Assembly (NCBI GenBank): GCA_029093185.1
Contig: GCA_029093185.1_4348.1
Reading direction: 5' to 3' (one strand)
DNA: 43,655 nucleotides
Origin: a phage
The position numbers were made by a program, and so were the translations under genes. The notes under the pieces were generated by a model. It was not told where the DNA came from, did not search any database, and saw nothing but the letters and a program-made list of their open reading frames with translations. Of the stretch, positions 3,147 through 39,892 are shown piece after piece (positions within the stretch are counted from its first letter, which is position 1; every line of letters starts with the position of its first letter).

Positions 3147-3175
3147 ACTATAATAGCTAACTATTCAGGTGTCAA
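3147..3175 (-). promoter_or_regulatory. Sigma70-type promoter with embedded operator palindrome
   Basis: Minus strand TTGACA (rc of 3170-3175), 17-nt spacer, TATAGT (rc of 3147-3152); spacer contains TAATAG-CTAA-CTATTC. Confidence 0.6.
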
Positions 3176-10120: not shown

Positions 10121-10278
10121 GAGAAGCATTCGAACGGTGGGCCGTCGTCGATGGTCTGCCGGTTAATAAGGGTTCGAAGAAAGAGTACCTGAACGTTAAG
10201 ACGCGTCTTGCGTGGCGGGCGTGGAAAGCTGGTGCGCAATATCGGGCCGGTGTAACAGGCGGTGTAACAGGTCAATAG
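10117..10278 (+). CDS. Hypothetical small protein (53 aa)
   Basis: ATG overlaps the upstream stop (ATGA); below the 60-aa cutoff of the ORF track, found by reading the frame. Confidence 0.35.
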   Translation: MREAFERWAVVDGLPVNKGSKKEYLNVKTRLAWRAWKAGAQYRAGVTGGVTGQ

Positions 10279-18664: not shown

Positions 18665-18687
18665 AGCCCCGAAAGGGGCTTTCTTAT
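18665..18687 (+). terminator. Terminator-like hairpin after the portal gene
   Basis: AGCCCC-GAAA-GGGGCT followed by TTCTT. Confidence 0.4.
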
Positions 18688-18723: not shown

Positions 18724-19767
18724 ATGAGCTTACTTACATCCCTAATCAGCCATCAGATATGGCTGCAACGCACCGCATCCGGTGAGGTGAAAGACCTCAC
18801 GCCGTTCATTCAGGAGATAAGGGATGAAATCAAACGGCAGGTGCTGTTATTCGGTGACGACGGTCGCAGCACTGCGCGACTGAATAAACTGTTACGCGAC
18901 CTGGAAGAAGCACTAACCGGTATTACGGGTGACTGGCAAACAAAGCTAACAGACGACCTTAAGGAACTGGCGGCGTACGAGGCTGAGTGGAACGTAAAGA
19001 CACTGACCGCCAACGTAGACGCGGAATTTGTTACGCCTACCGCTGAGCAGGTATGGGCCGCTGCCGAGTTTCAACCATTATCATTGAGCGACAAGCCCGT
19101 TGATTTCACCAAGCTGATGTCTGGATGGGGCGAAACGGAAGTAGCACGTCTTGTAACTGGAGTTAAGATGGGCTTTGTGCAAGGTCAAACCACACGGCAG
19201 ATTGTTAAGAATGTTGTTGGCGCTGGTGGACTAGCCGACATCTCAGAACGTAACGCGACTACGGTAATCCGCACCGCGCTGTCCCACGTATCCAACGAGG
19301 CCCGTAACGAGACGTACCGCCAGAACGACGACATCATCGAGAAGTACGAGTGGGTGTCAACGCTTGACAGCCGCACCAGTACGATTTGCAGGGTCAGAGA
19401 CGGGATGACGTGGGAAATTGGTAAGGGGCCGATGCCCCCAGCCCATCCGAACTGCCGGTCGTGCACGGCTCCGGTAATCAGTTCCGAGTTCGACTTCCTC
19501 GATAAAGGCGCAAAACGCGCGGCTAAAGGCGCGGAAGGTGGCACTCAGGTAAGCGCAGACACCACTTACTACGAGTTCCTTAAACAACAACCGGCGTGGT
19601 TTCAGGACCAGGCGCTCGGCCCGGTGCGAGGTAAGATTTTCCGTAACAGCGGTATATCGCCGGAAGAGTTTCGCGTAATATCTGTAGATGGTTTCGGGAA
19701 TCCGCTCACGCTTAAGCAGATGGCGGAACTCGATAAACGTGTTGCTGATTATCTGAAAGGGGAATAA
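18724..19767 (+). CDS. Head morphogenesis protein (SPP1 gp7 / Mu F-like)
   Basis: 347 aa after the portal, the usual position for this family. Confidence 0.55.
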   Translation: MSLLTSLISHQIWLQRTASGEVKDLTPFIQEIRDEIKRQVLLFGDDGRSTARLNKLLRDLEEALTGITGDWQTKLTDDLKELAAYEAEWNVKTLTANVDAEFVTPTAEQVWAAAEFQPLSLSDKPVDFTKLMSGWGETEVARLVTGVKMGFVQGQTTRQIVKNVVGAGGLADISERNATTVIRTALSHVSNEARNETYRQNDDIIEKYEWVSTLDSRTSTICRVRDGMTWEIGKGPMPPAHPNCRSCTAPVISSEFDFLDKGAKRAAKGAEGGTQVSADTTYYEFLKQQPAWFQDQALGPVRGKIFRNSGISPEEFRVISVDGFGNPLTLKQMAELDKRVADYLKGE

Positions 19768-20228
19768 TGATGGGCTTTTTCAAAGTAACTGACGTACCGT
19801 CTCGTCGCGTAGTCCAGTACGCCCGCGTGTCTGGCTCTGGCGAGAACGTGGTATTTATTGAGGACGAAAGTGTACTCGGTACACCGGTAGATGATATGCC
19901 GTTTGCAGATAAAACCGGTATTGCGTTGCCCGCCGCCGGTATGCTTTATGAAATTCCGTATCTGGCGGACGCTGGCGACGTGTATTTCTCTGCGCAACCG
20001 CAGGACGCTGAACTGGCGGGCGGCAGCGCAACCATCACTGTCGAGGTTAAGGCAGGCAAAGCGCCGTATTCTCTGACCTGGTACAAAGACGGTAAGGAAG
20101 TGGTGAATGCGCCTGAGGAGGCTCTGTCTCTGACGGTTAATGCGGTCGGCGAATACTTCGTTAAAGTTACTGATGCCGATGGAGTAGAGGCGGTAAGCAA
20201 AGCGGCGAAGGTTACTAAGCCAGAATGA
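19767..20228 (+). CDS. Virion protein with C-terminal Ig-like domain
   Basis: 153 aa; YSLTWYKDGKEV...GEYFVKVTD resembles an immunoglobulin-like repeat. Confidence 0.5.
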   Translation: MMGFFKVTDVPSRRVVQYARVSGSGENVVFIEDESVLGTPVDDMPFADKTGIALPAAGMLYEIPYLADAGDVYFSAQPQDAELAGGSATITVEVKAGKAPYSLTWYKDGKEVVNAPEEALSLTVNAVGEYFVKVTDADGVEAVSKAAKVTKPE

Positions 20229-20231
20229 TAA

Positions 20232-20258
20232 AAGGCCCCATTATGGGGCCTTAGTTTT
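20232..20258. terminator. Bidirectional rho-independent terminator
   Basis: AAGGCCCC-ATTAT-GGGGCCTT flanked by a T-run on the plus strand and an A-run upstream; sits between convergent genes. Confidence 0.6.
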
Positions 20259-20461
20259 CAACGGAATCTTGTGTTTAAATCCTGCTCATGGACAACCCTC
20301 AGAACAGTGTCATAATCCCCGTATCTTCCAGGTTCAAATATATCTAATGCCTTGTAAGCAGACATTGCGTCAGGGAAAACCTGCAGAACCTTTTTAACCC
20401 GGCACAAGTCACCGTCGAACTCTTCATCGAACTCTTGAACTACTTCGCAAATTGCATACAT
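20258..20461 (-). CDS. Small acidic antisense moron protein
   Basis: 67 aa, about 14 acidic versus 8 basic residues; strong AGGAGGTG Shine-Dalgarno; own promoter and terminator. Confidence 0.6.
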   Translation of the reverse strand: MYAICEVVQEFDEEFDGDLCRVKKVLQVFPDAMSAYKALDIFEPGRYGDYDTVLRVVHEQDLNTRFR

Positions 20462-20488
20462 TTTTCACCTCCTGTTTAAGTTAACTGA

Positions 20489-20517
20489 ATAGTACCCTAT
20501 TATATTGGGGTGTGCAA
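20489..20517 (-). promoter_or_regulatory. Early-type promoter with operator palindrome driving the antisense moron
   Basis: Minus strand TTGCAC (rc of 20512-20517), 17 nt, TACTAT (rc of 20489-20494); TAATAG-GGTA-CTATTC. Confidence 0.55.
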
Positions 20518-20569
20518 ACTATTTATTTACGTATTCCAGTTATTCCTCCGAATTGTAAATGTTGGAATA

Positions 20570-20585
20570 AACTATTCGAATAGTT
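20570..20585. promoter_or_regulatory. Perfect 16-bp palindrome AACTATTCGAATAGTT
   Basis: Same half-sites (CTATTC/GAATAG) as the recurrent operator but abutting with no spacer; adjacent to a TTGACT hexamer. Confidence 0.4.
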
Positions 20586-20836
20586 GACTTTTCACTAAAA
20601 ATATGATAAGCTCCACCTGAGCTTGTGAAGTATGAACAAGCGACCGCGGCGCGGGCAGGTAACGGAGCGGGACGTAAGTCCTGAGTGTAGTTACGCTGAC
20701 GCGTTCGGAAGGGCCATACTCTATTGCTTGTGTAAAAAGTAACTGGTTTACTGAGATTACGCCGTTTCTATGTTTAAATGATAAGGACTAGCGCCCCGCT
20801 TTATGGCGGGGCTTTACTTATCGAGAAAGGGGAAAC

Positions 20837-21223
20837 ATGAATCTTAAAGCAACTGTCGTAGCAGGAGCATGTTTCATCATCCTGGTTTACGCACACGGCA
20901 TCTACCAGTATCGCAGCGGATGGAACGAAGGCCGGGCTAATCTCGTTTCGCAGCAACAGCAGAAAGCACAGGCTGAGTTAGCGAAGAAAACACAACGGCA
21001 GCAGCAGGATGAATCGAAGGCCGCCGCCGCTGACAACGAAGGCAAGACGAAATCAGAGGTGATTACCCGTGAAGTCGTTAAGTACATTAAAACGCCTGGT
21101 CGCAGCGTGTGCACTTTTGACCCTGAGCGCGTGCAGCTCAAGTCCCGCGCCGTCGCCAACGCCAATTCCATCCCCGGATACGACGATGATGCAGCCGCCG
21201 TGCAAACTGGCGCAGCCAAGTAG
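20837..21223 (+). CDS. i-spanin (Rz-like)
   Basis: 128 aa; N-terminal transmembrane segment (ATVVAGACFIILVYAHGIY) followed by a Gln/Ala-rich periplasmic region. Confidence 0.65.
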   Translation: MNLKATVVAGACFIILVYAHGIYQYRSGWNEGRANLVSQQQQKAQAELAKKTQRQQQDESKAAAADNEGKTKSEVITREVVKYIKTPGRSVCTFDPERVQLKSRAVANANSIPGYDDDAAAVQTGAAK

Positions 21224-21332
21224 CGACGCTGATGAGGATTTGGCCGTCGACGTTCAGAATGCTGAATGCGTACGGCAACTGAGACTGAAAGTGTTCATGT
21301 TGCAGGATTACGTGAGGAATATTCTGGAATAG
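21069..21332 (+). CDS. o-spanin (Rz1-like lipoprotein), overlapping the i-spanin in another frame
   Basis: 87 aa; signal peptide with lipobox LTLSAC, then a proline-rich mature region; starts inside the i-spanin gene and extends past it. Confidence 0.6.
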   Translation: MKSLSTLKRLVAACALLTLSACSSSPAPSPTPIPSPDTTMMQPPCKLAQPSSDADEDLAVDVQNAECVRQLRLKVFMLQDYVRNILE

Positions 21333-21414
21333 TTGCCTTGCATGTTGGAATAATTTATTCTTGACATGTAAATCCGGGTGGCCCGGATTCCAACGTCCAG
21401 GGGACATACTGACT

Positions 21415-23183: not shown

Positions 23184-23210
23184 GAGAGGGACTTCGGTCC
23201 CTCTTTTCAT
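23184..23210 (+). terminator. Rho-independent terminator after the major capsid gene
   Basis: AGAGGGAC-TTCG-GTCCCTCT followed by TTTCATTT. Confidence 0.6.
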
Positions 23211-26636: not shown

Positions 26637-27805
26637 ATATGGCTACAACTCCTTTTAAGGGCGCGAATACCGCGCAATTCTATGTGGCGGAAGTGACCCC
26701 GGGTGTAACACCGACTAACCCGGTCTGGTCACCATTACGTAACACGGGCGGTGTTCCTGCCATTACCCGTGACACACTGACCTCCAACGAACTCGACGGC
26801 AGCCGTGAAACTACATCCATCCGCACCGGTAACAAACAGGTTAGCGGTGAATACGCAATTGAGCTTAGCTCTAAAAGCCAGGATGACTGGTTGGCAGGTG
26901 CTTTAGGCTCTACGTGGCAATCCGGTGTTTCTCTGCCAGGACTATCGATCACCGTCGCGCCCGCGGGCAAGACGTTCACACGCGCTACCGGCAGTTTTAT
27001 CACTGACGGAGTTGGGGTAGGCGACCTGATTGCGTTTACCGACTTAACAGGCGATAACGCAAAACCATTTATTGTTACCGCAGTAACGGCTACCGTTGTT
27101 ACTGGTGCAGGCATCCAACACACCCTGACCACCGAGACAAAAACTAGTAAGGCTAAAACTGGCGACACGCTGGAAACCGGTAACACATGTAAGACGTTCT
27201 CTATTCTCACCTGGTACAAAGGACAGTGCGGCGGGACTGACGCATACACACTAACCAAAGGTGTGGAAGTTTCCGGTTTCACCGTTGAGCAGGCCGTTAA
27301 CGCGATGGTTACAGGTAGCTTCCCGTTCATCGGGCGCAGCCAGGAGATTCTTACTACGCCGCCGTCTGGTTCCAACTTCTCCTCTGTCACGTTTGGTGAT
27401 GAGCCATTCTCCTCGGTTGACGTTTCTGTGTTTGACGGCTATACGCCGTTGCGTTGCGACAGCCTGACCATCACCAACGACAACAGCGCATCCGCGCAGT
27501 TCGAACTCGGCAACACTAACGTAGCGTTTGTAGAACGTAGCCGCGCGGCTAACACCTTCTCCATCTCCGGCAAGCTGTATGACATGGCGATGATTCAGAA
27601 GTTTATCAACGAGCAGCAGGTAGAGATTAACTCTATTCTGGCGGGGGTAAACGGGGCTATGTCTTTCAGTTTGAAACGTGCGGAGCTTACGGCAGTTACC
27701 CCAGAGATTGGCGGACCTGAGTCAATCACTCAGTCCATTGAAGGCCAGGCTACTGGCAACCAGTACCAGTCGTCTATTGTTATTCAGCGTATCACCTACG
27801 CATAA
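26633..27805 (+). CDS. Major tail protein
   Basis: 390 aa, Thr/Gly/Ser-rich, followed by a terminator. Confidence 0.6.
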   Translation: MNMATTPFKGANTAQFYVAEVTPGVTPTNPVWSPLRNTGGVPAITRDTLTSNELDGSRETTSIRTGNKQVSGEYAIELSSKSQDDWLAGALGSTWQSGVSLPGLSITVAPAGKTFTRATGSFITDGVGVGDLIAFTDLTGDNAKPFIVTAVTATVVTGAGIQHTLTTETKTSKAKTGDTLETGNTCKTFSILTWYKGQCGGTDAYTLTKGVEVSGFTVEQAVNAMVTGSFPFIGRSQEILTTPPSGSNFSSVTFGDEPFSSVDVSVFDGYTPLRCDSLTITNDNSASAQFELGNTNVAFVERSRAANTFSISGKLYDMAMIQKFINEQQVEINSILAGVNGAMSFSLKRAELTAVTPEIGGPESITQSIEGQATGNQYQSSIVIQRITYA

Positions 27806-27809
27806 AACT

Positions 27810-27835
27810 AAGGCCCCGAAAGGGGCCTTTTTTAT
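27810..27835. terminator. Bidirectional rho-independent terminator
   Basis: AAGGCCCC-GAAA-GGGGCCTT followed by TTTTTTATT; also terminates the convergent antisense operon. Confidence 0.65.
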
Positions 27836-28065
27836 TACTCATCAATGTTACTCCTGTACTCCCGTAACTTTTCCAGACTTTCAATTGCTTCCGCTAAGTC
27901 GGTTCCGGTGTCCTTGTGTCCACGTAAACCCATGCACAATAGCTTCTTCAATGCGTGCTGTAACGCCGGGTCGCGGATGTCGAAAGCGCGGAGCACATCA
28001 TAAACGTCTACTGTCATAGTGCTGCCGTGAGTATTTGTCATTGTGCGGTTGTATTTTGAAGTCAT
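27835..28065 (-). CDS. Hypothetical small protein (third gene of the antisense moron operon)
   Basis: 76 aa; ATGA overlap with the phosphoesterase gene. Confidence 0.55.
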   Translation of the reverse strand: MTSKYNRTMTNTHGSTMTVDVYDVLRAFDIRDPALQHALKKLLCMGLRGHKDTGTDLAEAIESLEKLREYRSNIDE

Positions 28066-29192
28066 CCCAGCATCTCCGGTGAAATAGTTAAACGTGCGAC
28101 CTCGCCATATTCGGCGCTATAAGTAATTACATTTGCACTGCGGCCTGACATCCACCCGCCGCGGGAGGCATAGGCGTCTTTAGCCGCTAAGGTGCGGTGT
28201 TGCTCAACAATCATGTTACGGCTTTCTACAATCTTCTGGTGGTGCAGGTGGCCTACGTGGGCGTAGCTATAGACACTCTCACCGAACGCTTTGCGGAATT
28301 TGGCAATCATAACCGGTTCGATAGCATCGAATCGCGCCTTATGCCCGTGGTGAAAGAACAACGTCGTTTTTCCGTGTTGCACCATCTTGTAAACATCCGG
28401 CGACGTATCGACAATCACTCGGCTGTCGTTCGAATATAAAACTGTGAACATTTCAGCCAGCCATACAGAGCCTACAGGGTCATGGTTCCCCTGTACGATA
28501 AGCAAGCGAACATTTTTATGTTTAACCAGTGCCATATCTACAACACAGCGTACCATACGAATCATGTAGCGGACGAGTTTCTGGTAGCGAGTGTCTGCGT
28601 CCAACACGTGACGCGACTCAGGTGTAACGGCATCCAGACTATCGAAGTGCGCGAAATCACCCAGCAGGTTAATAACTCCTGTTCCTGCATCCGGTGCTTT
28701 CTGAAACGCCGCGTCGAACCAACGAGAGAACAGGTCTTCCGCAATCTTTATATCCCAGTCGTCGCCGCTCTCGTCGGCCCAGGCAAGCATACCGAGATGG
28801 AAATCAGATACCGTGTAAAGATTGAGTAGCTTGTCGTCGCGTTTGGCTCGAGTCGCTTTAGCCGGCGCAACTGGCGTAATCTCTGACTTCATGCCTTCAA
28901 TCACGGCTTTCATCAACTCGACCTGACGTTCAGCGTCGGTGTCTGTCTTAACCCATTGCAACTTAGTATTGCCGAACTCGTCTACCAGAGACGACGTTCC
29001 TTTAATCTTGTAGCCGTCTGGCACAAGGTGGCTAACGTCACGCCCGTGGCCTACACCTTTCTTAGCCAGCTTCGCTTTACGGATACGAATAACTCGGTCT
29101 GAGATGCCGTATTTACGGGCGATGTCTACATTCTTCATCCCGGCGTTCAATTCTTCCTGTAACTGTTCGTCGGTTATTTTCTTCTGGGCCAT
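28062..29192 (-). CDS. HTH-fused calcineurin-like metallophosphoesterase
   Basis: 376 aa; N-terminal HTH (VDIARKYGISDRVIRIRKAKL); phosphoesterase motifs VSDFHLG (DxH), LGDFAHFD (GDxxD), VQGNHDP (GNHD), HHGH and GHLHH. Confidence 0.7.
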   Translation of the reverse strand: MAQKKITDEQLQEELNAGMKNVDIARKYGISDRVIRIRKAKLAKKGVGHGRDVSHLVPDGYKIKGTSSLVDEFGNTKLQWVKTDTDAERQVELMKAVIEGMKSEITPVAPAKATRAKRDDKLLNLYTVSDFHLGMLAWADESGDDWDIKIAEDLFSRWFDAAFQKAPDAGTGVINLLGDFAHFDSLDAVTPESRHVLDADTRYQKLVRYMIRMVRCVVDMALVKHKNVRLLIVQGNHDPVGSVWLAEMFTVLYSNDSRVIVDTSPDVYKMVQHGKTTLFFHHGHKARFDAIEPVMIAKFRKAFGESVYSYAHVGHLHHQKIVESRNMIVEQHRTLAAKDAYASRGGWMSGRSANVITYSAEYGEVARLTISPEMLG

Positions 29193-29257
29193 GCTTACTT
29201 CCTCGTGTTTAGGATTTGTCCTATTTAACCACAGTGGATTCCTTTAAATAAAGGCAA

Positions 29258-29584
29258 CTATTTACTTTCTGCGCCTATCGCCCACCCTGTCATTACCATT
29301 TGCAGACGGGTGGCTGTCAGTAGGCTATAGAAAGCATCTCCGTTTTTCTCTACCGAACGTATCACTGTGTAGGTTACGGCCTGCGGGGGTAGGCCCGATT
29401 TACCAACCTCCACGGCGGCCTCACACTCGCGAACTGTAGAGTCCTTGAACGCCTTTACAATAGTAGGGTCGGCTTTCCCGAGCACACCAGAAGTCATAAG
29501 AACAGATTCACTAAATACCTGTTCGCACGGGGCTCCAAAAGTAGCAAAAGACATAAACCCCAGAGCTAATACTAATTTACGCAT
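29258..29584 (-). CDS. Small secreted protein with cleavable signal peptide
   Basis: 108 aa; MRKLVLALGFMSFATFGAP signal-like N-terminus; two Cys in the mature part; no lipobox. Confidence 0.55.
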   Translation of the reverse strand: MRKLVLALGFMSFATFGAPCEQVFSESVLMTSGVLGKADPTIVKAFKDSTVRECEAAVEVGKSGLPPQAVTYTVIRSVEKNGDAFYSLLTATRLQMVMTGWAIGAESK

Positions 29585-29612
29585 AATTATACCCTCAGTA
29601 AGTTACTGGTGA

Positions 29613-29641
29613 ATAGTACCCTATTATATTGGGGCGCGCAA
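29613..29641 (-). promoter_or_regulatory. Early-type promoter with operator palindrome driving the antisense moron operon
   Basis: Minus strand TTGCGC (rc of 29636-29641), 17 nt, TACTAT (rc of 29613-29618); TAATAG-GGTA-CTATTC; a 24-bp identity with the promoter at 20487-20510. Confidence 0.55.
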
Positions 29642-30165: not shown

Positions 30166-30527
30166 AAGCGCTGTATGAATTTGCGCAATGGTGTTTTGTT
30201 GACCGCCACAAACGTAAGCAATTCGACGACATCGCGGCAGGGCACCAGGCGGCTTTGATTGCAATGGGCGTGATTAAAGAACCGCAGATGAAAGAAACGA
30301 CGGGGCCTGAATGCCCCGTTTCTCTTATCGACGTGTTCGAGAAATACCGTGCCATTAAATTCCTACAGCGCGAAACAGATGATACTATCGTTATAATCCC
30401 GCGCGATGCGCTCAAATGGCAAGATTTGGTAGCGTTTCGTGATGTCGCCGGTTACGGCATAAGTTTGTTCGAAGCCGAGGTTATCATGGGCTTAGACGGA
30501 ATATTTGAGGGCAGAGAAGATGGCTGA
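30126..30527 (+). CDS. Tail assembly chaperone frameshift extension (GT-like; -1 frame, no independent start required)
   Basis: Frame open from 30126 to 30527 and overlapping the last 40 nt of the G-like ORF; GAAAAG (30157-30162) is a candidate slippery site. Confidence 0.4.
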   Translation, partial: APHRQPRETIGKVKALYEFAQWCFVDRHKRKQFDDIAAGHQAALIAMGVIKEPQMKETTGPECPVSLIDVFEKYRAIKFLQRETDDTIVIIPRDALKWQDLVAFRDVAGYGISLFEAEVIMGLDGIFEGREDG

Positions 30528-37683: not shown

Positions 37684-39864
37684 ATGTCAAGCGGATGCGG
37701 TGACGTTTTAAGCCTGGTGGATTTACAAACCGCCAAGAAACACCAGATTTTCGAGGCCGAGGTTATCACCGGTAAAGCTGGCGGTGTAGCTACGGGTGCT
37801 GATATTGATTACGCAACTAATCAGGTTACGGGACAGACACAGAAGACGTTGCCAGCCGTGTTGCGTGACGCCGGGTTCAGACCTGCGCCATTCACATTCG
37901 AAACAGGTGGGACTTTGGGCGTTAACGACGCTGACCTGGCGGTGTTGTGGCCAGGGCCATCAGGCGACGGCAACTATTATGCATGGAAAGGTGCCCTGCC
38001 AAAAACCATCCCGGCATCTTCAACCCCGGCGTCTACGGGCGGAGTAGGCCAGACCGCATGGGTTGCCGTTAGTGAAGCTGCATTGCGCCGTGATTTGGCC
38101 CTAAGCACTGGCGCAGGGTTAGTTGGGACAACATCCGGCAGGACCGTACAGGCAGAGTTTGACTACCGCAAGACTCAAGCAGCAAAAACAGAGATAAACA
38201 TACTTGACTACCTTCCAGCTAACGTGATCGCAGCTCTAAACGATGTTAACGCGTCAAAAGCACTAGGAAGCGTAAGGACATACATTGAGCAGGCTTTAGC
38301 GGCAGCAACTAGCGAGAATATCGGTACTGGGGTTACTTTACGTTTCCCGGCTGGGTTCTTTTGGCTTGATTCTACTCTTAACCTTCCAAAAAGGACGCGT
38401 ATTGTTGGGGTCTACCCAGAAACATACTTTATGGCTCTCCCTGACTTTACTGGCACTAACGTAATTGCCGGTTCAACAGGACCCGCTATAGTCGCTATTG
38501 ATAACACAGGACAAGACCCGTTTTATATTGAAGGTTTCCAGATAAACGCAGATGGTTCCCAGCCGAATGTGGTTGGGCTGCACATTGGCGGCTGCCGTAA
38601 TTCCGTCGTCCGTCGGATATCTGTATCTGGAACCTTCGATGCTGCTGTTGTTATCCACCCTAAAAACGCAACATCTGGAGCCGTGGAGAACCTGGAATTA
38701 AGCCACGTATGGACATTAGGCGGTGGGCTTGTGCTCAGGACTAATACAGATATCGACCGTGGAAATTTAACAGGCCTGTCATTCCGGGATTGTATGTTTT
38801 TCAGCACAATCGACAACAACCCTTCATGGGCGACATCTGGCAACCCTAGTATCAGGTTCTCCTGCCATGTAGACCGACAGATTTTTGCATGTACATTCGA
38901 CCGTGTAGGATGGGCGAGTCGCGCAACATACGCCATCTATTCAGAAAGCCTAGCCGGAAATAGTGCATCTGATGTCAAGGGCTTCCGCGATATTCATTTT
39001 ACAGATTTCCACGGAGAAGCCCACAATGCCGATGGGTCATTAACAGCGGACTGTACTTTTGCCCTTCTTGCGAATATGCGTAACAGTACATTTACTAATA
39101 TCCAACGCTCCGGCGCTGTGACTCGCGGCGGCATTATCATGGATGGGTGCGAATACGTAACATTCAACTCAGTATCATTTGCGAACCCTAATATCACAAC
39201 AGGAACAACGACACCTTGTTGCGTATACCAGAACTCCACCAACAGATTTAATAGATTTATTAACTGTGACTTAACAGATGCAACCGGGAGCATGTTTGAT
39301 TTAGCCGGTTGGACCGTGTCATCCAGTGTAATGTATTATTTTAAGGGTCTTTTTTGGGACGATAGTGGGACAAGTACCTGGGAGAGTGAACAAATGTCTT
39401 CAAAACCATTTGTTCTTTTTAAAAGGTCTGCGCTTAACGCCAATAACGGTTCTGCTTACCCGCAGGAATCAGGCGTAACTATGGCTACTTCTGGTGATAA
39501 TCTACAGGTTACCTTTGCACGAGACGCTACCACAAAAACATTCACAATACCAATCACAACTACAAACGCGGTTTTCAACAATCACGACCGCGTTTATGTT
39601 CTTTTCCGTCATCAATTTACCAGTTATGGGACAAATACTGTCGTAAAAATAGGACTAGGAACCTCATATGTGACTATATCACCACAGACCGGTAACGATT
39701 ATTTTGCAGCCATCAGTCTTGCCAGAAGCCAGGCAACTAGTTTTAATATCCAAGTTACCTATAGCGGCGCATCTGCAGACTGCGGCATATTAATCAGAGA
39801 TTTAGTAATTTCTGACAGGATGCCGTGGGTGCCAAACTTCACCAAATCCTTACTTTGCGATTAA
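37684..39864 (+). CDS. Tailspike / tail fiber receptor-binding protein
   Basis: 726 aa; conserved-looking N-terminal anchor region, then a long region rich in N/G/T/S repeats consistent with a beta-helix; last gene before the terminator. Confidence 0.55.
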   Translation: MSSGCGDVLSLVDLQTAKKHQIFEAEVITGKAGGVATGADIDYATNQVTGQTQKTLPAVLRDAGFRPAPFTFETGGTLGVNDADLAVLWPGPSGDGNYYAWKGALPKTIPASSTPASTGGVGQTAWVAVSEAALRRDLALSTGAGLVGTTSGRTVQAEFDYRKTQAAKTEINILDYLPANVIAALNDVNASKALGSVRTYIEQALAAATSENIGTGVTLRFPAGFFWLDSTLNLPKRTRIVGVYPETYFMALPDFTGTNVIAGSTGPAIVAIDNTGQDPFYIEGFQINADGSQPNVVGLHIGGCRNSVVRRISVSGTFDAAVVIHPKNATSGAVENLELSHVWTLGGGLVLRTNTDIDRGNLTGLSFRDCMFFSTIDNNPSWATSGNPSIRFSCHVDRQIFACTFDRVGWASRATYAIYSESLAGNSASDVKGFRDIHFTDFHGEAHNADGSLTADCTFALLANMRNSTFTNIQRSGAVTRGGIIMDGCEYVTFNSVSFANPNITTGTTTPCCVYQNSTNRFNRFINCDLTDATGSMFDLAGWTVSSSVMYYFKGLFWDDSGTSTWESEQMSSKPFVLFKRSALNANNGSAYPQESGVTMATSGDNLQVTFARDATTKTFTIPITTTNAVFNNHDRVYVLFRHQFTSYGTNTVVKIGLGTSYVTISPQTGNDYFAAISLARSQATSFNIQVTYSGASADCGILIRDLVISDRMPWVPNFTKSLLCD

Positions 39865-39868
39865 AACT

Positions 39869-39892
39869 AAGGCCCCAAACGGGGCCTTTTCT
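39869..39892. terminator. Bidirectional rho-independent terminator
   Basis: AAGGCCCC-AAAC-GGGGCCTT followed by TTTTCT; ends both the late plus-strand operon and the convergent minus-strand operon. Confidence 0.65.

Follow-up and report, generated by a model that had tools for sequence, protein, structure and literature searches.

A probable mobile accessory-gene cassette in an antisense slot of the late-gene region of an E. coli Kagunavirus phage

What is a single small gene doing on the minus strand within a run of head and lysis genes, and how did it come to stand there? The question is raised by a 43,655-nucleotide phage contig (GCA_029093185.1_4348.1 of the NCBI GenBank assembly GCA_029093185.1; this whole stretch is called the window here), in which a minus-strand open reading frame (ORF) encodes an acidic protein of 67 aa. 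Around it, the genes run in the order portal, Mu F-like head morphogenesis protein, Hoc-like head-decoration protein (19767-20228), the minus-strand ORF, i-/o-spanins (20837-21332), scaffold, and major capsid; the ORF thus lies between head genes and spanins, where the original prediction had placed it. That prediction described the locus as a single-gene antisense moron with its own early-type promoter and a bidirectional terminator. Our analysis points the same way: the gene is probably the cargo of a mobile accessory-gene cassette (moron) held in a standardized antisense slot of the late-gene region.

The window is the genome of a Kagunavirus. Its positions 19700-21400 were 100% identical to Escherichia phage vB-Eco-KMB35 (Kagunavirus, Guernseyvirinae) and 99-99.9% identical to the Kagunavirus phages Bas70, Bas71, and Bas74 of the BASEL collection. 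Genome-wide identity to KMB35 (OR525704) was ∼94%, with 100% reached around the locus only, 89-98% elsewhere, and several segments unaligned. Because full identity is confined to the locus, the window represents a distinct mosaic relative and not KMB35 itself. The Kagunavirus group is virulent (PMC7203180), and RNA polymerase, integrase, and repressor genes are all absent from the KMB35 annotation.

The interval between the Hoc-like gene and the spanin genes (Hoc|spanin slot) was taken from 45 related loci in IMG/VR and GenBank. Its length ranged from 339 to 1311 nt. Nine loci were empty (339-343 nt); they contained neither the gene nor the palindrome/promoter motif described below, and carried a plain plus-strand terminator, AAGCCCCGAAAGGGGCTTTTT. 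All other loci were filled with minus-strand cargo, the start codon of which stood at a constant offset from the spanin gene, and at least 12 unrelated cargo types were found behind one promoter type. Alignment to the empty slot of locus L012 defined the edges of the insertion, with homology stopping at 20226 and restarting at 20532. The whole cassette accordingly spans 20227-20531 (305 nt), consists of terminator, gene, leader, promoter, and ∼14 nt beyond, and stands in place of a 39-nt terminator-containing segment of the empty-slot relatives. Its guanine-plus-cytosine (GC) content was 41.0%, compared with 51.1% for the genome and 53.5-54.8% for the flanking genes. The span proposed originally (20258-20517) covered the gene and the promoter and left out the terminator. 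The features of a moron were therefore found at this locus: presence or absence at the same gene junction, a base composition unlike that of the genome, and, at the sequence level, a promoter and a terminator of its own, which are missing from the empty slots and travel with the gene.

The cargoes of the filled slots were diverse. Small ones were a 33-aa membrane peptide and proteins of 57, 63, 67, 70-75, 81, 83-101, and 94-106 aa; larger ones were a 173-aa protein, an endonuclease VII/HNH-like protein of 141-179 aa (L041/L030), and a 242-aa N6/N4 DNA methylase. Paired cargoes were a 33 + 114-aa lipoprotein pair and a 192 + 112-aa pair. The methylase, an orphan N6/N4 DNA methyltransferase (Pfam E 6e-30), was present in L023/L018 and in L059 (S102; 974-1702). 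The endonuclease VII/HNH-like cargo may be a homing endonuclease and could itself help cassettes to move. At the left edge of every filled slot stood a terminator stem, AAGGCCCC-loop-GGGGCCTT, with differing loops, and at the right edge the cassette promoter with a leader of either of two types. Both types were joined to several cargoes, and the 173-aa cargo was found with each of them. The 67-aa gene itself was rare, being found in 33 phage records versus the 181-305 records that hold the surrounding region.

The same gene was also encountered in a second slot. In L056-L058, a 79%-identical copy lay antisense between the portal and Mu F genes, and the Hoc|spanin slot was empty. This copy kept the cassette promoter (TTGCAGACACCAAcATAATAGGGTACTATTCA), the leader, and the terminator (AAGGCCCCATAACGGGGCCTT). 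A 63%-identical copy was found in the portal|MuF slot of Jerseyvirus VSt10. The corresponding interval of the window is short and holds none of its eight palindrome copies. Since a cassette with a 79%-identical gene resides in the portal|MuF slot, the unit is likely to be a mobile moron in a standardized expression slot. On these grounds (empty slots devoid of gene and motif, unrelated cargoes with the same promoter and terminator, and a second slot), the moron assignment made from the window alone was borne out.

The coding sequence of the 67-aa protein occupies 20258-20461 on the minus strand, begins with ATG, and is listed as a hypothetical protein in GenBank records. With 14 D+E versus 8 K+R residues, a net charge of −6, and a pI of 4.50, the product is the small acidic protein that had been anticipated. 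So is the strong Shine-Dalgarno (SD) sequence, AGGAGGTG, at 20466-20473 on the minus strand, which is separated from the ATG by four A's. It lies inside a leader of ∼20 nt, GTTAACTTAAACAGGAGGTGAAAA, of a type common to other, unrelated cargoes. Five nucleotides past the stop codon begins an intrinsic-terminator hairpin, AAGGCCCCATTATGGGGCCTT (20232-20252, both strands), with a 9-bp stem (6 GC) and a loop of 3. Its calculated folding free energy was −15.8 kcal/mol on the minus strand and −16.3 kcal/mol on the plus strand, and the sequence after it reads UUUUAUCA on the minus strand and AGUUUUCA on the plus strand. Judged by these properties, the hairpin would end the moron transcript on the minus strand and probably also the portal-to-Hoc transcript on the plus strand. 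Paralogous copies of the terminator were found in the window at 2418-2445, 27803-27831, and 39862-39890.

Upstream of the leader, the promoter-like element TTGCACACCCCAATATAATAGGGTACTATTCA (20486-20517, minus strand) consists of a −35 hexamer TTGCAC (20512-20517), a 17-nt spacer, and a −10 hexamer TACTAT (20489-20494); this TTGCAC-N17-TACTAT arrangement sits 27 nt upstream of the ATG. A palindrome, AATAG-N4-CTATT, at 20488-20501 overlaps the −10. The element was identical to 29610-29641 at 30/32 positions, including an exact 25-nt run (20486-20510 = 29610-29634), so that the 24 bp originally reported as shared with 29611-29634 was correct to within one base. The pattern TTGCRC...TAATAGNNTACTATTCA occurred four times in the window (0 expected) and the palindrome eight times (0.02 expected by chance), at 3152, 6045, 9539, 10274, 10443, 20488, 29612, and 42468. 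For seven of the eight palindrome copies, an ORF on the matching strand starts 27-65 nt downstream, in most cases with a recognizable SD. The exception, at 10274, has neither a −35 nor an adjoining SD-preceded ORF. A tandem direct repeat, GGTGTAACAGG-c-GGTGTAACAGG, lies at 10249-10271, directly upstream of this copy.

The remaining sites were sorted into class A (9523+, 10427+, 20517−, and 29641−), where the arrangement is TTGCAC-N10-palindrome and the right half-site forms the −10 TACTAT, and class B (3175−, 6068−, and 42491−), where the palindrome lies in the spacer of a near-consensus sigma70 promoter (TTGACA/G-N4-palindrome-ATAGT). The motif had been seen before by PHIRE as a repeated phage promoter with the consensus tgAATAGTa-ccTATTat-T in seven copies in the Kagunavirus fBC-Eco01 (PMC9825357), and it has also been noted in phage SGP-C (PMC8790156). 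Because its register relative to the −35 differs between the classes, the palindrome is probably an operator through which a dimeric phage regulator acts on host-type promoters. For fBC-Eco01, recognition by an RNA polymerase of the phage itself has been suggested (PMC9825357). We rejected this reading, because no such gene is annotated in these genomes and the class-B copies are near-consensus sigma70 promoters. The motif is common to promoters that open the rightward small-gene operon and that precede replication-module genes, and distant homologues of the gene are co-transcribed with DNA polymerase or primase genes; the label early-type is a reasonable one for the putative cassette promoter. 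In the published RNA-seq data of the Kagunavirus K1B4, slot genes are unannotated, and no usable timing for them could be obtained.

The palindromic core of the 32-bp element raises the question of which strand it serves. It might be a plus-strand promoter or regulatory site for the downstream RNA, spanin, and capsid genes, with the ORF being expressed otherwise or never. Indeed, its plus-strand reading resembles class B (…GAATAGT-N3-CTATTATAnT), which fires in that orientation at 3175, 6068, and 42491. However, the plus strand offers AAGTTA and no −35, and a separate and better plus-strand promoter (TTGACT-N17-TGnTAAGCT) is located at 20584-20612. The element is missing from all nine empty slots, where the downstream genes are intact; it moves with the cargo into the portal|MuF slot; and all four TTGCRC-type copies lead to an SD-preceded ORF on the TTGCRC strand. 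A plus-strand role is therefore highly improbable.

We then asked what kind of protein the cassette delivers. Tblastn located the gene in 33 phage records, namely 20 of E. coli Kagunavirus, four of Salmonella phages at 62-67% identity (Jerseyvirus VSt10 included), six of Klebsiella phages (Jedunavirus Geezett included), one of a 61-kb E. coli phage, and two of Cornellvirus Shemara. A word-indexed search of 5.8 billion proteins returned 18 clusters, and an exhaustive HMMER profile search of 1.84 billion representatives returned 22 hits, almost all 63-75 aa long. The full-length ORF was kept at 44-100% identity in at least five phage groups or contexts. Residues D16, A35, and the C-terminal F66-R67 were invariant across the family, and comparison with the 79%-identical copy gave a ratio of nonsynonymous to synonymous substitution rates (dN/dS) of 0.34. 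The 67-aa protein is under purifying selection. Acidity was kept in 20/21 family members; the net charge was −5 to −9 in 18/19 short members and −10 and −13 in two N-terminally extended ones.

An AlphaFold2 model built from a 16-sequence alignment had a mean predicted local distance difference test score (pLDDT) of 89.4 and a predicted template modeling score (pTM) of 0.71. It starts with a long β-hairpin (residues 2-12 and 17-29), which is followed by a helix at 32-41 and a short helix and then by a third strand (53-58) and another short helix. On a compared structure with a small α/β arrangement, 46/67 residues superposed at 2.6 Å; overall there was no significant fold match. No match to the protein was found in Pfam, NCBIfam, or PADLOC, a profile search of PDB sequences gave nothing below E 0.1, and PHROGs yielded only a weak match to an unannotated family (E 4e-4). 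The family is uncharacterized and has no recognizable fold relative. These properties bear on the suspicion that the ORF is spurious or decaying and lies in selfish filler DNA that makes no functional protein, as the rarity of the gene, the lack of a Pfam family, and the weak PHROGs match might suggest. Conservation at full length across the phage groups, the low dN/dS, the invariant residues including the C-terminal Phe-Arg, the high-confidence fold, and the strong SD have largely refuted it. The model and the conservation are those expected of a genuine, folded, acidic, cytoplasmic protein.

The genomic contexts of the homologues were compared for hints at function. In VSt10 and Geezett, they are antisense inside head modules and have their own promoter. 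In L054 and L055, they stand directly after the DNA polymerase A gene and are co-directional with replication genes, and in the Klebsiella phage vB_Kpn2-P2 the homologue lies between the RNA ligase and DNA primase genes. The main rival to a binder of host or competing-element proteins is thus a protein with an accessory part in the replication or recombination of phage DNA or in nucleotide metabolism, such as one that modulates a DNA enzyme of phage or host. This reading draws on the three unrelated contexts in which the homologue is co-directional with, and directly beside, replication genes, and on a promoter type common to the replication-module promoters at 3175, 6068, and 42491. Yet a conserved partner gene was ruled out, the genes downstream of the Geezett and Kpn2-P2 homologues being unrelated; most Guernseyvirinae with those replication genes are without the 67-aa gene; and neighborhoods of replication genes often collect small accessory genes. 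We consider a replication factor unlikely, although it comes closest among the rivals.

A DNA-mimic anti-restriction factor of the Ocr/ArdA/Arn type, which would block host restriction enzymes early, was also weighed. The protein is small, acidic throughout the family, and encoded behind a promoter of the type used by non-late genes, and orphan DNA methylases, one of which is found in the slot as an alternative cargo, are classical anti-restriction devices. Its charge density is modest, with 21% acidic residues, whereas known DNA mimics have a higher one, and no sequence or fold similarity to solved DNA mimics rose above noise. The structure prediction that had been recommended as a check for DNA-mimic character thus spoke against it. 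In addition, all seven BASEL Kagunavirus isolates Bas70-76 carry the gene at 98.5-100% identity and yet are reported to be highly sensitive to restriction-modification systems (PMC11990801), a comparison that is not an isogenic test. A broad anti-restriction role as a DNA mimic is therefore very unlikely.

Because most relatives lack it, the 67-aa gene is dispensable for the basic lytic cycle. Our tentative preference, held at somewhat less than even confidence, is that the protein, which is selected, cytoplasmic, and acidic and whose gene is found time and again under non-late control, is a small binder of a host or competing-element protein that would act in host takeover or counter-defense. 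Similarity to known anti-CRISPR (Acr) proteins or an adjoining aca-type helix-turn-helix (HTH) regulator gene was not found, and the defense library gave no match. The role as an inhibitor of host defense or of a host enzyme that the original prediction put forward is a guess.

The cassette would work as follows. Its own promoter, read by host RNA polymerase and belonging to a phage-wide family that shares the 14-bp palindrome, would drive a single gene, preceded by a short leader that contains a strong ribosome-binding site and closed by a hairpin terminator acting both ways. The moron would thereby be read in the direction opposite to the head and lysis genes and independently of them, with neither transcript entering the other, and the 67-aa protein would be made before, or independently of, the late genes. 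Near-identical promoter-leader and terminator modules would allow homologous recombination to swap cargoes and to move cassettes between slots and genomes. Repeated modules are indeed dispersed in the window (four class-A and three class-B promoters; terminators at 2418, 20229, 27803, and 39862), and gene shuffling between modules is evident among the relatives, with at least 12 cargoes, two leader types in several combinations, and one cargo in two slots. Since promoter and terminator modules are repeated, they are plausible handles for homologous recombination, and exchange of cassettes by this route is consistent with their distribution.

Some observations weigh against this picture. The −35 of the cassette promoter is weak (3/6 consensus), and a strict sigma70 scan does not call the promoter; the combination of a weak −35 with an operator-like palindrome suggests activation or repression by a phage factor and hence phage-specific regulation. 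The terminator scan called the hairpin at 20232-20252 on the minus strand only, the U-tract on the plus strand being poor. Of the bidirectional terminator in the original prediction, the hairpin and its minus-strand orientation were thus supported by the scan, and the plus-strand half is plausible and weaker. Finally, slot membership alone is no pointer to counter-defense, because the cargoes are mixed and include a methylase, a nuclease, membrane peptides, and a lipoprotein. A mobile cassette in a standardized slot nevertheless remains the likely explanation of the locus. The wider reading, a Guernseyvirinae cassette-exchange system whose few fixed antisense slots in the structural operon, each framed by a standard promoter-leader module and a two-way terminator that serve as recombination handles, circulate small counter-defense and takeover genes and in which the 67-aa protein founds a new inhibitor family with an unseen fold, aimed at a host immunity or core protein, is in our estimate doubtful.

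A second antisense unit of the window is related to the cassette. The paralogous class-A promoter at 29610-29641 (minus strand) would drive this unit, which lies between the major tail and tail-chaperone genes and contains minus-strand genes for proteins of 108, 376, and 76 aa (27835-29584). Its terminator (27810-27829) was called on both strands, and the region is 83% complementary to 20230-20258. The 108-aa protein has a hydrophobic N terminus that by eye resembles a signal peptide, and the 376-aa protein gave a weak Pfam match to calcineurin-like phosphoesterases. Among relatives, the length of the major tail|tail-chaperone slot varied between 18 and 2936 nt, additional cargoes being 161, 184, 111, 166, and 238 aa long, and the class-A motif was present at its right edge in all Kagunavirus-like loci.

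Directly to the right of the cassette lies an unannotated structured RNA gene (∼20584-20822, plus strand), which we regard as more unusual than the cassette itself. It comprises a predicted promoter at 20584-20612 (TTGACT at 20584-20589, a 17-nt spacer, and TGn-TAAGCT at 20604-20612), a transcript of ∼200 nt that is rich in GC, and, just before the spanin SD, a strong terminal hairpin at 20793-20812 (plus strand). The segment was kept in every relative, including those with empty slots. The 238-nt unit was 98.3% identical to that of Salmonella Jerseyvirus S102, compared with 77-87% for the flanking genes, and a 277-nt query (20560-20836) was matched at ≥95% identity in 179/181 phage records. 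For 30 distinct sequences, RNAalifold predicted 66 pairs, six of which had compensatory double changes, compared with 0.7 in shuffles and 0-3 in slid controls. A 36-aa ORF inside the RNA (20632-20742, plus strand), annotated as a hypothetical protein in the KMB35 and BASEL records, has no convincing SD; it is probably a mis-annotation, because indels shift its frame in L012, L038, and L040, where the RNA hairpin is kept. A search of the window against Rfam at gathering thresholds gave no match, and relaxing the cutoff to E 10 around the locus added nothing but noise. The RNA region had no match in E. coli genomes (chromosomes and plasmids).

Upstream of the −35 of the RNA promoter, an inverted repeat, TTATTCC-N17-GGAATAA, occupies 20540-20570, and a 12-bp palindrome, CTATTCGAATAG, at 20572-20583 abuts the TTGACT. 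The palindrome consists of the half-sites of the promoter palindrome in swapped order, and its center would be near −41.5. It could be an activator site for the regulator of the early promoters.

In many Kagunavirus-like genomes, the RNA occurs twice, the second copy having diverged (L065 4138-4480, L098, L103, L104, L097, and L060 1800-2150). This copy has the same promoter, and its 5′ domain of ∼115 nt shows compensatory changes; in one of its pairs, CG was found 20 times, UA 8 times, and AU 3 times. Its place is the divergent early control region, where it is flanked by an HTH gene and, just downstream, by the class-A promoter opening the rightward operon. The window has the spanin-proximal copy only.

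Strong plus-strand terminators recur in the rightward structural region (18665-18680, 20793-20812, 23184-23205, 27810-27829, and 30299-30320). The series follows the portal, major capsid, and major tail genes and includes the two-way terminators of the morons. Because late transcription must pass these hairpins, leaky termination or antitermination is implied, and a put-like cis-acting antitermination RNA becomes an attractive idea. The neighboring RNA may be such a put-like antiterminator for the late operon or, equally, a trans-acting small RNA.

Taken alone, the cassette is one more phage moron and would be of little surprise to a phage genomicist. Its slot, in turn, offers an expression site that is insulated, has been validated by nature, and comes with a standard promoter, leader, and terminator; such slots are safe insertion points for payloads. 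The phage group is small and genetically tractable, is part of the BASEL collection, and is used in synthetic biology. The cargoes that occur naturally, at least 12, allow near-isogenic phages to be compared, and the 67-aa protein and its slot-mates could be tested cheaply for counter-defense and host takeover. The late region contains two-way terminators as well, and how late transcription passes them is a question that ties the cassette to the neighboring conserved RNA.

How does the cassette compare with known systems? The moron concept reportedly goes back to Juhala, Hendrix, and colleagues and to lambdoid and HK97-like siphoviruses. Classical morons are found mainly in temperate phages, where they are expressed from the prophage and benefit the lysogen. 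The cassette resembles them in several ways: it is extra DNA between two genes that adjoin each other in relatives, it brings a promoter and a terminator of its own, it would be transcribed independently of the late operon, its base composition deviates, and the lytic cycle has no need of it. It differs in that Kagunavirus is virulent, the promoter comes from the phage's own family and is not foreign, and the slot is standardized and receives many cargoes. For the protein, a further comparison class is that of small acidic phage inhibitors (the anti-CRISPRs AcrIC8 and AcrIF9, T7 Gp2, and Ocr). The closest known system is that of the promoter-early stem-loop (PeSL) cassettes of T4-type phages, for which recombination between repeats has been shown experimentally (Arbiol et al. 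2010, PMC2839356). There, too, small non-essential ORFans lie between sigma70-like promoters and stem-loop terminators that occur repeatedly, and recombination explains insertion, deletion, and replacement among close relatives. PeSL cassettes are characterized by excised mini-circles and by experimentally shown promoter and terminator activity. In contrast to the T4-type phages, Kagunavirus is a small siphovirus, its motif is AATAG-N4-CTATT, and its cassettes stand antisense in a structural operon and not in hyperplastic early regions. The slot architecture in Guernseyvirinae was not met in the literature searched, and antisense cassettes within the structural operon of a virulent siphovirus are, together with the uncharacterized protein family, new elements that the locus adds to these systems.

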